Positions 15,558-53,700 of a stretch of DNA of 64,000 nt are shown here, one piece after another. This DNA comes from a virus (Duplodnaviria > Caudoviricetes), in the IMG/VR virus record IMGVR_UViG_3300020049_002596, positions 1-64,000 of that record; one strand, written 5' to 3'. Numbering within the stretch: position 1 is the stretch's first letter; each line of letters begins with the position of its first letter. The notes under the pieces were generated by a model. That model was not told the DNA's origin and did not search any database. It was given only the letters and a program-made list of their open reading frames with translations. Position numbers and translations under genes: made by a program.

Positions 15558-15788
15558 TTATGAATTTGCTTTGGGTTTTCTTGGCTTATAAACCCTCTTT
15601 TTCTTGATAGGTTTAGGCTCTTCTACAGGTAGAATTTCCACAGCTGTAGGTTCTTCTTTGACTTCTTTTACCTCTTCTGAAGAATTGCCTCTTACTAATG
15701 CCAAAGCAACAATAGCAACAACACAACCCCCAATAAAAGAAAGGCCTAATAACAATAGATTATCCATAGTATTCTGCAATTTTATCAA
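15558..15788 (-). CDS. Small membrane protein with basic tail
   Basis: One TM segment, KKKRVYKPRKPK. Confidence 0.55.
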   Translation of the reverse strand: MIKLQNTMDNLLLLGLSFIGGCVVAIVALALVRGNSSEEVKEVKEEPTAVEILPVEEPKPIKKKRVYKPRKPKANS

Positions 15789-16470
15789 CTACATATCCTA
15801 AATCATTAGGAATGAATTGTTTGTCAAACATACCCACTGGAGATTTTGCAGATGAATACATCTCATTCTCATTAGTTAAGAATTCTTTAACAGCTTTCTT
15901 TTCAGTAGCATCATATCTACTAATACCAATAAGAGTAACATCTACTTTACCCTCTACAGTTAAATACTCATCTACCATCTTACCTGTAGCTTTGTATTTC
16001 ATGTAGATTCTACCATCAGGTCCAGGAGTACTATCTCCATGAGCCAAAATGATAACATTTTTACCTGCAGCATCTAATTTCTCTATGGCATCAAAGATTT
16101 TACCCATAAAGTAACCAATTTGCTTAGGTGCATCCCAACCTTTAGCCAAGGCATTAGCCATGTACCAATTTTGCATTACATAGTTTGAATCATCCCATAC
16201 AATGTTCTTGAATGGACTGTTCACTAAGTTTAAGAATATAGCTTCTATATCTTTTGCATTATCAGTAATAACTCTTCTCCCTGTTTTTAAGTCAGGCATT
16301 GTAGTAATTGGGTATGCTGAACCACTTCCTCTAAAAGGTAGAGGCTTTGAAGTAACTGATATTAAATAAGTTTCTTCAGGAACAAGTCCTTTAATACCTA
16401 ATTCAGGTATCTGTCCAATACTTGTGGACTTTCCAAATCCTGACGGAGCCAGGACTAAAATTTTTGGCAT
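15760..16470 (-). CDS. AAA_24/Sak4-like P-loop ATPase
   Basis: Walker A APSGFGKST, IVWDD, LAH, AKSP. Confidence 0.8.
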   Translation of the reverse strand: MPKILVLAPSGFGKSTSIGQIPELGIKGLVPEETYLISVTSKPLPFRGSGSAYPITTMPDLKTGRRVITDNAKDIEAIFLNLVNSPFKNIVWDDSNYVMQNWYMANALAKGWDAPKQIGYFMGKIFDAIEKLDAAGKNVIILAHGDSTPGPDGRIYMKYKATGKMVDEYLTVEGKVDVTLIGISRYDATEKKAVKEFLTNENEMYSSAKSPVGMFDKQFIPNDLGYVVDKIAEYYG

Positions 16471-16494
16471 AATGTAATTTTTTAATTAATCATT

Positions 16495-17046
16495 TTACGA
16501 ATTGCAATAAGTAACTTTAAATCCTTTACAAGTTTTTTGTTTTCCTCTTAACACTCTTTTTACATTAGACAAGTCTGCTTTAATGTCTTTTGAACATTTT
16601 GTAATACTATCATAAGTCTTTATGTATTCTCCTGAAGCTGTATAAAGATTTACTTTTTTTTCACAATTATTACTTAATCCTTCCTTGTATCTTTTCTTTA
16701 AAGAATTAGATATTTGAAGCTTTGTCTCTAATGAAAAATCTCTTCTTTCTACTTGCAACATAAGATTATAAAAAGGATTATACAAATCTATATAGTGTTG
16801 TTCCAATCTAGTTAAATCTTCTTTTGAAGAAAGTTGGACTACATAAAAAATAAAATCTTTTTCATTGTGTTTATTATAAGAGTTTTGCAACTTCTTATTA
16901 GGATGGCTATTACCTCTCAACTGGGCTCTGTGTTTAAGGCCTCTTTGATAAATATTAGTTGAACTACCTATGTACCTTTTACCAGTTAACGTGTTTTGAA
17001 GACAGTAAATACCTATTAGTGTCTTTAGTTGTGTATCTATTTTCAT
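16495..17046 (-). mobile_element. Free-standing GIY-YIG homing endonuclease with NUMOD-like C-terminus
   Basis: GIY...YIGSS..R..H, HPNKKLQNSYNKH, E...YN; likely start MKIDTQ at 17046; own TATCTTTG promoter at 17051-17058. Confidence 0.88.
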
Positions 17047-17077
17047 AACACAAAGATACACAATTTTTAGAAAATAA

Positions 17078-17110
17078 CCCACTTGGGGCAAGAACTAAAA
17101 TCTTAGCCAT
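17078..17110 (-). pseudogene. Orphaned original 5' end of the AAA ATPase gene (MAKILVLAPSG)
   Basis: Matches the current start MPKILVLAPSG (16470-16438) at 10 of 11 residues but with different codons. Confidence 0.85.
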
Positions 17111-17119
17111 ACTTTTTCT

Positions 17120-18382
17120 TTAAATAGTTAAAGGTTCAAATTTCTTTATGTCCCCATACATGTTTACTCTAAAGTGTTGAGGACAAACACTGTGTCTAGA
17201 TTCTACTAAATGTATGGTTCTCATATTTGGATATAAAAGAGATTTATCAGGTCTTCTAATTGCAGTACCAAAATGCTTAGTAAGATTAAACTTATCATCA
17301 TTTGGGTTAAACATTGTGAAGATATAATTACTATCCTCACTTAAATTACCTGTCTCTTTAATATCATCAGACTGTGGAAACAATCTGTCATCATCATACT
17401 GCCTTCTTCCAATGTCACTCAATGCTCTATTAAGGTGGATAATATGAACAAATGTAAAATTGCAAGTGTTTCTAAACTCTACAGCATATTCTGAGAATTT
17501 ATCTACAGTTTCTTTCATCTTGAAACCTCTTTCAGGTAGTAGCTTTCTTAAGTGGTCAGTTATTACAATGACATACTTAGCAGGATTGTTAGGTTTATAA
17601 CCTATCATCCTGTTAAATGTTTGTCCATCTTTGACTGTAGTTCTATACAAGAACTCACCATTTTCTTTAGCATAACTTAAAAGATAGTTTCTGACTCCAG
17701 TAGGGTTATCCTTGATTTCCAAGAATTTAATCAACCCTTTAGAAACTTTTTCCCCTTTTTCATTATATTCTCCAAGTAAAGGAATTACTCTAGACCTATA
17801 GATAACCTTTATTTTAGAAACAAGGTCTTCAGGTACTTTGATAATTTCTTTGGGAGAGTCTGGGGTTGCAGTATCATATTCTAACTCGCCTTTCAAAAAG
17901 GCAGAAGATAAAGATACAACATTTTTTCCTTTGTACAACTTTCCAGGGGGTAAATTTATCAAATATATACCATAATCTGCATTGAGAAAATGGGCTACAA
18001 AATCAAATTCTTTACTTACTCTGTCAATCTCAAAAGAGTTGTAGATAAACTCAACATCAAGCATCTCACCATTTAACCTCTCATACTCATTGTTAAGAGT
18101 AGTCCTAGTTTCAGGGTCAGATGTTGTTTCAAGTCTAGTAGCAAGAGCTTCTAAAGAAGCCCTAATTTTGGCATTATGGTCCAATACATAGACAGCAGGT
18201 TCTATACAAAAACCTACATCTACAAAAGTTGACTTCCCTCCCTTTGGGGCAGCTCCAACAGTGTAGATTCTTCCTCTTTGGATACCATTAATTGCCTGTG
18301 AGATAGTCTTCAAACCTTCCCCCATAGGAAGGCCTTTATTACTACCTTTTTGGCCTGCTTCAAATGCTGCTCTAAAATTCAT
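17120..18382 (-). CDS. DnaB-like replicative helicase
   Basis: GAAPKGGKST, ITDH, HLNR, DIKETGNLSED. Confidence 0.85.
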   Translation of the reverse strand: MNFRAAFEAGQKGSNKGLPMGEGLKTISQAINGIQRGRIYTVGAAPKGGKSTFVDVGFCIEPAVYVLDHNAKIRASLEALATRLETTSDPETRTTLNNEYERLNGEMLDVEFIYNSFEIDRVSKEFDFVAHFLNADYGIYLINLPPGKLYKGKNVVSLSSAFLKGELEYDTATPDSPKEIIKVPEDLVSKIKVIYRSRVIPLLGEYNEKGEKVSKGLIKFLEIKDNPTGVRNYLLSYAKENGEFLYRTTVKDGQTFNRMIGYKPNNPAKYVIVITDHLRKLLPERGFKMKETVDKFSEYAVEFRNTCNFTFVHIIHLNRALSDIGRRQYDDDRLFPQSDDIKETGNLSEDSNYIFTMFNPNDDKFNLTKHFGTAIRRPDKSLLYPNMRTIHLVESRHSVCPQHFRVNMYGDIKKFEPLTI

Positions 18383-25561: not shown

Positions 25562-25565
25562 TTTG

Positions 25566-25969
25566 TGGACCCGCTGGGAGTTGAACCCAGGTCTTAAATA
25601 CTTCAATATTAGAAATTTATACAGCTTGTTTTACCAATGTGTCTTTTAATTCTGCTTTGGCAATGCAAGAATAGGGTCAACTGTTAAGAAGACCTCCACC
25701 ATCCAGTTTTCTATCCTGGCAAACTGAGTATTAATCTACCTATTTTTGGTTAGGCAACCATCGCCAACTCTTCTCTTGAAGAGAATAAGTTAATAACACC
25801 ATTGATGATGCTATCTACTACATTCATATTAGCTGCTATTTGTGCGTTGTCTTCTAAAGATACTACACTGTTGTTTGTGTTTCCAATTACTTGATTCACC
25901 TTAGTTTACAGTTATCTCTCTGGCTGATTTCTAACACATAACATACCTAATCAAAGCCAAGTCGGGCCC
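25566..25969 (-). ncRNA. ssrA: tmRNA
   Basis: 5' GGGCCCGAC.TTGGCTTTGA; 3' GACCTGGG-TTCAACT-CCCAG-CGGGTCCA; 7-bp acceptor with G3.U; internal tag ORF 25884-25750; 404 nt. Confidence 0.92.
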
Positions 25970-50787: not shown

Positions 50788-53700
50788 ATGTCTCAAAAAT
50801 TTAAAAGTGAAGTAGAACTTCAAGCTTTAAATGCTGCTACCACAGATACTGATAAATTCTTAGTATCTGATGGTGGCATCATTAAGTTTAGAACAGGGGC
50901 TGAGATGTTATCTGACTTAGGTGTGGCACCTGGAGTAGCCTCTAATATTCAACATCAAGTAAAAGCAGGAGTAGCAATAAATAAAGGACAAGCAGTATAT
51001 GTATCTTCAGCAGATGGTACTAATATGATTGTGTCTTTGGCATCTAATGCTGCAGAAGCAACCTCATCAAAAACAATGGGGTTATTGGCATCTACTGTTG
51101 CTATAAATGGTTTTGCTAATGTTATAGTTGAAGGTTTACTTGCAGGACTAAACACATCTACTGCTACAGCAGGAGACCCTGTTTGGTTAGGTACTGGAGG
51201 TAATCTTATTTATGGTTTAGTAAACAAACCTTATGCACCAGCTCACTTAGTTTTTATTGGTATTGTTACCAGAGTTAATGCCAACAATGGAGAAATCTTT
51301 GTAAAAGTTCAGAATGGATTTGAACTTGATGAATTACATGATGTAGACTTAAAAAGTCTAACTCCTGTTAGTGGACATATCTTAGGGTTTAATGGGAACC
51401 TGTGGGTTAATAAAACTATTGCAGCTTGGTTAGGATATACACCACAAGTTCAACTTAATGGGACTGGATTTGTAAAAGCATCTGGAACTACAATTACTTA
51501 TGATAATACATCTTATTATCCATCTTCAAACCCTAATGGGTATATATCTTCTTATTCAGAGACAGATACTTTACAAAGTGTAGTCAATAGAGGAGCAAGT
51601 AGCTCAACACAAATAACTTTGTCAGGAGCTGGAAATAATTCTACAACCTATTCTTCTTTAAGATTTGCAGGATACAACCAAGGAGGAGGAGTTGGATACC
51701 ATGGTTTCTTTGAGATTCAAAACACTTATGGTTCTGTAACTAATGGTAAAAAGTTTTTTAGAATAGATGGAAGTGGTACTTTACAAATTATCAACAGTGC
51801 TTATACAAATAACATCTTTAATCTTACTGATGCTGGAGATTTAACAACAACTAAGTTTATAAAATCAGGAGGAACTGCTGCTCAAATATTAGCTGCAGAT
51901 GGTTCTGTAATTACAGCAGGTTCAAATATTACTATAAGTGGAGGAGTAATATCTTCTACAGGAGGTGCAGCTTATACTCATCCTGCTTACACAGCAAGAA
52001 ATATAGATACATCAGGAGCACAAGTAATTGATATAATTACATCAGATGCCATAGGTAGTATAACAAATATTACAACAAGGAATTTAACTCCAGGTGACAT
52101 AGGTGCTCAACCAGCAGGAAGTTATTTGACTTCTGAAACAGATACATTACAAAGTGTAACTAATAGGGGGGCTACGACTAATTTAGCCATAACTTCTCCT
52201 AACTATGTATTTACTGGAGCTAGTAGTGGTGCGGTTGGATTGGTAACATCGACAAGTTCTTTTGGAACACGAAGCTCAGATGGTACAACATACGGATATG
52301 GTATTAGTACAAATATAAATGGAGGATTAGATATAATGGCTAATCAGTCAGGCCAGCCTATAAGATTTTGGGCAGGTACAACAAATGTTAGCCCTATACA
52401 ACGTATGATTATATCTGCTGGTGATGTTACAGCAACAGATTCATTTAGATCTCCTATATTCTATGATTCAAATAATACTGGTTACTATGTAGACCCTAAT
52501 AATACAAGTAATTTAAATATAGTTAGAGCTGCAAATAGACTAACTGGGGCTTGGATTGGTGTAGATAATACAAGTGCAACTAGTGGTAATGGTATTTCAT
52601 TATATAATGGCTCTGCTGCTGGTCAACCTACTTATGGGATAATGTTTGCAGGGACTGCTACTTTTGGAACTCATGGTTCTGTAACCTCAGATTGGGCTAC
52701 TTATTTAACTATGAGTGACACTACAACTAGAGGTTGGATATTTAAAAGAGGTACAACTAATGTTGCTTCTATTTCAGGTACAGGAATACTTACAGTAAAT
52801 GGAGATGTAAGAGCTCCAATTTTTTATGACTCAAATAACACAGGTTATTATTGTGACCCTACTAGTACTTCTAACTTAGTTGGATTAACAGTAGCTAATA
52901 CTATTTCAGGTAACATAACAGGTAACTCAGGCACTGTATCAAGTATAACTGGCAATACAGGATTGATGGTAAATTCTTTAGCGGCTCCTGCACTAATTGA
53001 TGGTTTAACTACTGCTAATTTTAGAAGTACTTTATTTGGGACTACGTCTAATGGTTACCAAATATCAACTGCTAGATGGAATAATGTACCAGCACCTTTA
53101 GGAGGTCTAGGGGCTTATGGTACTATGCTTTCTTGGTCAGGTAGTGATACACATGGTTTTATAGCTATGGACTATTCTGCAGCTGCCCTTAGAGTTGGAG
53201 GAGGAAATGCAAACAATATTAACTGGACTAGACAAGTAATTATAGAAGATGCTTGGGTAAATAGTAAGTATCTTGCATCAGATGGAAGAATTTACGGCAC
53301 TATATTTTATGATGCAAATGATTCTACATATTGGGTAGATCCTGCTGGTTCAACAACTTCTGCAAATTTTCTTTCTAAGATAACTATACAAGGAGGTTCT
53401 AATAGTGCAACAACTATGATGCAAGTTGTCAATAATTATGGAAATCCTTCTTTAAGTTCTTATTATGGTATTTTACATAGCTCTAGTGCTTTTTATGCTG
53501 GAAACCCTACAGGTACAGCTTATGCTGTATATGGTTCTGATGCTCAGTTTTATACTTACTATGATAGAAATAATACTGCTTATTACTTTGATGGTAGTAA
53601 CACAGGAGATTCTATTAGAGTTGCAGGAGACATTGTAGCTTACTATTCTGATGATAGATTAAAAGATAGAAAAGGAAACATTGAAAATGCATTAGAAAAA

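Follow-up and report, generated by a model that had tools for sequence, protein, structure and literature searches.

The classical free-standing Seg and Mob homing endonucleases of T4-like phages lie between genes and cut a neighbouring gene, a process known as intronless homing, and homing endonucleases are generally regarded as entering coding sequence only when shielded by an intron or an intein or by splitting the gene. Here we analyse a stretch of 64,000 nucleotides (nt) from a crAss-like phage (positions 1 to 64,000 of IMG/VR record IMGVR_UViG_3300020049_002596, a complete 95.5-kb virus genome), referred to throughout as the window, in which a GIY-YIG endonuclease gene lies inside the coding sequence of a Sak4-like ATPase. 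We consider it very likely that this gene and its flanks form a free-standing homing cassette that carries its own replacement gene start.

The closest described system is found in fungal mitochondria, where elements termed mORFs bring along a foreign C-terminal gene end and the native end remains as an orphan that matches close relatives (PMC3630166; PMC6279837). Such gene hybrids involve atp6 of Allomyces macrogynus (Paquin et al. 1994, in the account given by PMC3630166), atp6, atp9, cox2 and nad3 of Glomus (PMC3630166), and C-terminal duplications of atp6 and cob in Endoconidiophora (PMC6279837). The phage cassette resembles mORFs in pairing an endonuclease open reading frame (ORF) with a divergent gene end that is in use, in leaving an orphan that matches un-invaded relatives, and in doing without splicing. 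Whereas mORFs replace the 3′ end of a mitochondrial gene, often in frame with it, the phage cassette supplies a new 5′ end, start codon included, and its orphan keeps the native translation start; it is a mirror image of mORFs that works alike without being one of them.

With phage enzymes of the Seg/Mob and I-TevI type, the cassette shares a GIY-YIG domain combined with NUMOD-type modules, a free-standing gene beside its target and a presence/absence polymorphism (for the phage context, see PMC10448857), together with co-conversion of flanking markers and an immunity of carriers, predicted in our case, that arises from sequence differences. Unlike the classical Seg/Mob genes, it sits inside coding sequence and requires a duplicated gene start. 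Endonucleases within essential phage genes have been described for the T4 mobA/gene 60 cassette, where two polypeptides and a 50-nt translational bypass are involved (10.1101/2022.08.31.505936), and for phage Aeh1, where mobE splits nrdA (as cited in PMC10448857). Our cassette is like these in combining an invaded gene with a device that keeps the gene functional and a site that is protected (as predicted here); it is unlike them in that the locus gives one normal full-length protein rather than two polypeptides. A search of a literature collection found no phage precedent for a duplicated 5′ gene end beside a homing endonuclease, which is not proof of absence.

Cassette architecture and the two ATPase starts

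The cassette is inserted after codon 11 of the ATPase gene, within the Walker A codons, and holds an intact endonuclease gene of the GIY-YIG/NUMOD type, a short spacer and a new ATG followed by re-spelled codons (11 in all; Table 1). Its limits were set from a contig of run X15 that joins 16435 to 17076, from a contig of run X1 that passes from 16437 to 17112 with a native-type start in between, and from an alignment of four cassettes. To its left lie the 3′ end of a helicase gene and a 9-nt spacer, and the non-coding flanks of the endonuclease gene measure 29 nt on the side of the orphaned ATPase start (copy A) and 24 nt on the side of the replacement start (copy B). Copy A stands at the native distance from the helicase stop, has the GCC CCA AGT GGG spelling of 49 single-copy relatives, and is followed by two T (17077-17076) that still fit the native Phe codon.

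Table 1. Positions of the cassette, its parts and the adjoining genes in the window
Feature	Positions	Strand	Remarks
Cassette	16436..17075	minus	640-nt insertion/deletion relative to endonuclease-free genomes; 2-nt (TT) boundary ambiguity
Copy A, orphaned native-type ATPase start	17078..17110	minus	ATG and 10 codons, encoding MAKILVLAPSG
Copy B, replacement ATPase start	16438..16470	minus	ATG and 10 codons, encoding MPKILVLAPSG; rare codons (GCT CCG TCA GGA)
A/T-rich spacer, endonuclease stop to new ATPase start	16471..16494	minus	24 nt; similar in L051 and L097
Free-standing GIY-YIG homing endonuclease gene	16495..17046	minus	183 amino acids; C-terminal NUMOD-type DNA-binding module
Remnant ORF	16979..17110	minus	43 amino acids; copy A continuing into the cassette and crossing the endonuclease start codon in another frame
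TATCTTTG box	17051..17058	minus	12 nt upstream of the endonuclease ATG
Hairpin, 10 base pairs	17029..17063	minus	arms 17063-17054 and 17038-17029; endonuclease ATG (17046-17044) in the 15-nt loop
Sak4-like (AAA_24-type) ATPase gene	15760..16470	minus	236-amino-acid ORF, full length
DnaB-like replicative helicase gene	17120..18382	minus	420-amino-acid ORF

Copies A and B differ in 8 of 11 codons (seven synonymous, one an Ala/Pro exchange at position 2), or 11 of 33 nt, and copy B is rich in rare codons: CCG accounts for 4 of the 559 Pro codons (0.7%) in the long ORFs of the window, and GTC and CTG for 6% and 3% of their respective families. An initial reading made from the sequence alone, without database searches (the sequence-only reading), had described a duplicated, nearly identical peptide with 8 of 11 codons differing, a rare CCG among them, and was correct in every detail. 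A six-frame scan of the window found a close same-strand repeat of a 9-residue peptide in one further case only, a plus-strand gene at about 51.5-52.9 kb (51556-52851); peptides of 9 to 12 residues recur there 360-580 nt apart with 21-24 of 27 nt identical, and are internal repeats, probably of a structural protein. A transposon target-site duplication was rejected as the origin of the two starts, the repeats being 33-35 nt long, different at 11 positions and colinear as coding sequence.

The ATPase is made from copy B as a single, ordinary full-length protein, without RNA or protein splicing. It is colinear with its relatives from residue 1 and 98-99% identical in amino acids to those of endonuclease-free genomes, with Walker A visible at residues 8-15 (A8-P-S-G11 / F12-G-K-S15); it scores 18.9 bits against Pfam AAA_24 (cut-off 27) and, across 99% of its length, has 57% identity to a crAss001 protein listed in RefSeq as a Sak4-like ssDNA (single-stranded DNA) annealing protein. 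The helicase has a weak, below-cut-off match to Pfam DnaB_C (22.4 bits) and 98% amino acid identity to that of the endonuclease-free relatives L002-L004. Megablast of the region against GenBank phages returned no match, relatives there being found at the protein level only (crAss001 group, 57%). Elsewhere, the window encodes a phage transfer-messenger RNA (25563-25969, minus strand; Rfam RF00023, 74.3 bits).

The endonuclease, present once in the 95.5-kb genome, matches Pfam GIY-YIG (PF01541; 39.3 bits, cut-off 22.6) and, at its C terminus, I-HmuI_NUMOD-like (PF22083; 36.6 bits, cut-off 27), with NUMOD1 at 17.8 bits, under its cut-off. It aligns with the catalytic domain of I-TevI (1mk0/1ln0; E = 8e-7) at the GIY, YIG, Arg and His positions, while the catalytic Glu and Asn, outside that alignment, were read directly from the sequence. 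The ORF and its catalytic motif positions are intact in four lineages, down to 57% identity, and by this measure the enzyme looks active. Its ATG lies 64 nt past that of copy A, in another frame, and the gene is in frame with neither copy A nor copy B; this offset excludes a frameshift or fusion product of copy A and the endonuclease.

Empty sites, other carriers and a proposed homing model

Scanning IMG/VR with the ATPase yielded 57 loci, to which we added the metagenome contig L097. In 49 close relatives without the endonuclease, there is one ATPase start, 10-14 nt past the helicase stop, which is of the copy-A type (GCC CCW AGT GGS) and joined directly to TTTGGAAAG, just as the sequence-only reading had predicted for the codons at 17110. 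That reading had also named the duplication, should it occur in endonuclease-free relatives, as evidence against itself, and a motif count found it in none of these 49 contigs. Contigs of two public runs likewise join both sides of the window as empty relatives do. The duplication recurs only in the three further contigs that have the endonuclease (L040, L051 and L097), with an identical junction after the Gly codon; a search for the exact junction pattern gave no match in the metagenome collection and only L040 and L051 in IMG/VR. The locus is therefore polymorphic for presence or absence at a fixed site, with four carriers and 49 non-carriers sharing the same junction and both forms occurring in run X1.

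The carriers differ in how far they have diverged. The endonuclease of L051 is 84% identical to that of the window; in L097 the figure is 57%, with helicase and ATPase at 67%. The L040 enzyme (184-954) is 67% identical overall, its catalytic half and upstream region being nearly identical in DNA to those of the window and its C-terminal DNA-binding half unrelated in sequence and about 70 amino acids longer, which looks like a domain swap in an enzyme that stays at one site. Copy B of all carriers departs from the native spelling at the Ala and Ser codons, and a TCN Ser codon is found in copy B of all four carriers compared with 5 of 47 non-carriers (Fisher P = 5e-4, a value that ignores relatedness). 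Copy B of the window could also fold into a hairpin of 8 base pairs with a 3-nt loop (16438-16456, minus strand) that starts 16 nt past the ATG; it is found in L017 and L097 as well, and we dropped it as a candidate element because it is absent from L040 and L051 and may be due to chance.

The mobile unit consists of copy A, the endonuclease gene with a conserved upstream element (the 25 nt before its ATG are invariant across four cassettes), the short spacer, and copy B fused in frame to the rest of the ATPase. Between helicase and ATPase, L018, L049 and L051 have an additional ORF of about 125 amino acids. In L051, the entire cassette including copy A stands downstream of this ORF, so that copy A travels with the cassette. 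Copy A of the window has Ala (GCT), as do those of L040 and L051, where the nearest relatives of the window have Pro, yet the 20 nt upstream of it are identical to those relatives; the left crossover thus falls at about the copy-A ATG. Copy A is not just sequence of the recipient.

In the mechanism that we favour, the enzyme would cut un-invaded alleles at or near GCC CCW AGT GGG / TTT GGA AAG, and the break would be repaired from a cassette-bearing genome during co-infection, with the helicase end plus copy A serving as the left homology arm, the ATPase body as the right arm, and the endonuclease and copy B being copied in between. The carrier would probably be immune because neither copy retains the whole native site, copy A being without the right half-site and copy B having a re-spelled left half; the arrangement, in other words, is predicted to destroy the enzyme's own target site. 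Should the endonuclease be lost, by deletion or by repair on copy B, the allele that remains would probably be resistant. The cassette probably arose when a one-sided or illegitimate repair retained codons 1-11 of the recipient and took up the diverged 5′ end of another phage. An I-TevI-like cut 23-25 nt upstream of the junction was considered and set aside, as the differences between copies A and B in the window do not single out that position.

Ancestry of the replacement start and rival explanations

Relative to its nearest endonuclease-free relatives (L002-L004), the window shows 3% nucleotide divergence in the helicase and 6% in the ATPase, where the first 30 nt contain 8 of the 42 mismatches (binomial P = 8e-5). 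In a maximum-likelihood tree built from ATPase nt 37-333, a range free of the duplicated part, the four carriers take four positions scattered among non-carriers: the window is sister to the endonuclease-free L001 (98/92) inside a clade of 14 non-carrier rows, L051 is sister to the endonuclease-free L049, L040 belongs to a third clade and L097 falls far outside. The exact copy-B string of the window is also found in L017, which has neither endonuclease nor copy A, belongs to a distant, well-supported clade and has a helicase 13% diverged from that of the window at the nucleotide level; L097 shares an identical run of 23 nt of the same string. Because the codons involved are rare, shared descent of the segment is far likelier than convergence. 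L049 is a near-isogenic, endonuclease-free partner of L051 that has the copy-B spelling of L051; what separates the two is a deletion with a 10-nt direct repeat at its ends.

We read L017 and L049 as alleles that would have become immune once the nuclease was lost or through repair on copy B. Since the same rare-codon string recurs in distant backbones, including these two endonuclease-free ones, copy B is most likely an allele, foreign or diverged, that is carried along by the cassette rather than a purpose-made synonymous copy. The proposal in the sequence-only reading that the gene is split at the P-loop, remains unspliced and uses a re-coded 5′ end is largely supported, with the qualification that the re-coding most likely reflects such an allele.

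Population data, which derive from assembled contigs only and carry crude depth figures, show both forms of the locus. In run X1 (DNA), the endonuclease-free contig that bridges the site has a depth of 35 and the endonuclease-bearing contigs have depths of 5-8; the bearing form is also present in runs X2 (lake water) and X3 (wastewater), which belong to other studies. The RNA-library contig of run X15 skips exactly 640 nt; its sequence differs from that of the window by 6% and the joined form also exists at the DNA level, so that it represents an empty-site strain and not a spliced transcript.

Of the alternatives, the one that survives best would add to the homing model and not replace it: the orphan start may be kept as an upstream ORF or RNA element that controls translation of the endonuclease, ribosomes from the strong native ATPase start reading through the hairpin that holds the endonuclease ATG. 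Copy A does keep its ATG and an open frame past the endonuclease start in all four cassettes (the remnant ORF of the window, and its counterparts in L040, L051 and L097), and 8 of the 9 differences among the 33 nt of copy A between the window and L097 are synonymous. The 10-base-pair hairpin is predicted in the window, in L097 and, with one mismatch, in L051, and its 5′ arm is invariant in the four cassettes; it shows no covariation, however, fold z-scores around both starts are weak (-1.1 to -2.5), and the remnant ORFs differ in length among cassettes, so that we treat the hairpin as a lead and not as a finding. The conservation of copy A fits a homology arm repeatedly refreshed from functional alleles, which explains it equally well, with an upstream-ORF function also possible. 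On balance we regard such control as unlikely, though it is the alternative to which we give most weight. Within the same upstream element, the TATCTTTG box occurs at -12 or -13 in 8 of the 10 cassettes compared, which occupy two target genes, against a background of 8.5e-4 per nt. It fits the Bacteroidota -7 promoter consensus, TAnnTTTG, and is possibly a promoter element of that type, again a lead rather than a finding.

Somewhat less probable still is that the locus is the fossil of a single faulty repair, with an immobile cassette whose patchy distribution reflects ordinary recombination and repeated loss. Cassettes of this kind do decay (L147, L150, L151 and L170, described below), the endonuclease-bearing form is the minority in run X1, and the activity of the enzyme is predicted from its motifs. 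Yet an ORF and catalytic positions that have stayed intact in four lineages, the occurrence of carriers in four parts of the tree, each beside non-carriers, and a spike of divergence limited to the cassette edge all argue for mobility.

A scheme in which copy A is the start in use, joined to the rest of the gene by means of a self-splicing intron or an intein, with copy B incidental, is next to impossible, even though neighbouring genes of relatives do hold introns, among them a group I intron in the helicase Walker A codons of L012. Rfam found no intron in the region at E <= 1, where the only two matches were chance-level ones to an animal microRNA precursor and a small nucleolar RNA, and none in the whole window at gathering scores; the non-coding flanks of the endonuclease gene are too short for a ribozyme, and the downstream gene has its own ATG, all of which bears out the claim of the sequence-only reading that the gene is repaired without splicing. 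An intein is contradicted by the endonuclease being in another frame than copy A, with stop codons between the frames. The protein encoded from copy B is complete and runs colinear with its relatives over its whole N terminus, starting at residue 1, and the joined form in the RNA library is the diverged, endonuclease-free strain already mentioned. Just as negligible is an assembly artefact or two-strain chimera: although the source is metagenomic and both alleles occur together in some samples, the same base-exact junction recurs in three other assemblies, each independent, and in contigs of three runs that belong to different studies.

Several observations weigh against the homing model as set out above. 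The target site and the immunity of carriers are predicted from sequence alone, and carriers are few (four assemblies plus contigs of three runs). In L100, a carrier of a related cassette in another gene, the six codons adjacent to the junction are identical in both copies, so that re-spelling of the junction is not obligatory for such cassettes. The differing, longer C-terminal part of the L040 enzyme at the same site may mean that its specificity differs, and alleles of the L017/L049 type could instead be the ancestral source of copy B.

Related arrangements at other genes and their meaning

When the peptides encoded on either side of related GIY-YIG genes, whose products are 28-49% identical to that of the window, were compared blind, the same arrangement emerged at two other genes, one HAD-like and one encoding a D12-class (Dam-like) methylase. 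In the HAD-like gene, which encodes 140 amino acids and is uninterrupted in about 60 relatives, the orphan start ends directly after the DFDGT motif and is followed by the nuclease gene and then by the replacement start, often extended so as to overlap the nuclease 3′ end; carriers are L100 (1200-2302), L108, L109 (1250-2445), L148 (=L063) and L169/L171. Decayed forms at this site are found in L147, L150, L151 and L170: L147 has a deletion of the orphan and the N-terminal half of the nuclease, and L170 retains the replacement start behind only the last ~40 nuclease codons. The endonuclease-free L156, L168, L177 and L215, with similar extended N termini, may be former carriers. In L107 (150-1307), the initial 27 codons of a D12-class adenine methylase are present twice, on either side of a GIY-YIG/NUMOD gene; the orphan copy stops immediately ahead of the EPFxGxG motif, and 13 codon changes are synonymous (including switches of codon family for Arg and Leu) and four are not.

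Introns also occur in the neighbourhood. In L012 (218-450) and L048 (2047-2866), an insertion with a GIY-YIG gene breaks the helicase gene within the Walker A codons of the helicase itself (GAAPKG / GKST), and in L012 this insertion matches the group I intron model (Rfam, 62.8 bits). The L012 enzyme is of the same kind and likewise aimed at a P-loop coding site, but its insertion has a group I ribozyme, whereas the cassette has none, and since Rfam detects the intron in L012, the intron-free state of the cassette is a real contrast and not a failure of detection. Two adjacent P-loop genes are thus targeted by the same kind of nuclease through two different devices. Further insertions of 300-1000 nt are found at ATPase residue 113/114 (L049, L050 and L051) and about residue 166 (L048 and L051), and at about helicase residue 347 (L035); several of them hold GIY-YIG ORFs, and L051 has three insertions in one 711-nt gene. 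They are likely introns because the downstream gene pieces are without start codons; Rfam at the gathering score gave no match for those in L048, L050 and L051.

Taken more broadly, these loci raise the prospect, which we consider evenly balanced, that phages harbour a widespread and undescribed class of homing cassettes. Such cassettes would invade the first 10-30 codons of a gene, in most cases at a catalytic or cofactor motif (here Walker A, DxDGT of the HAD-like gene or the stretch just ahead of methylase motif I), and carry a spare gene start, the orphan providing the left homology arm and perhaps also acting as an upstream ORF that controls translation of the endonuclease.

The locus represents a third and simpler route by which a homing endonuclease can occupy phage coding sequence, namely by carrying a spare start for the gene that it enters. 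The comparative set is unusually complete, comprising empty sites, four occupied backbones, immunised-looking alleles, nucleases in decay and a sample with both forms, so that the entire homing cycle can be followed at a single site. The arrangement accounts for orphan mini-ORFs and for unusual gene starts with rare codons in annotated phage genomes, points to the probable recognition sequence of the enzyme, and provides a natural template for placing cargo in essential phage genes while leaving them intact, the ATPase invaded here being essential-looking. If the wider class is real, decayed cassettes would leave behind immunised alleles and new N-terminal extensions, and would be a steady source of N-terminal diversification in phage proteins.

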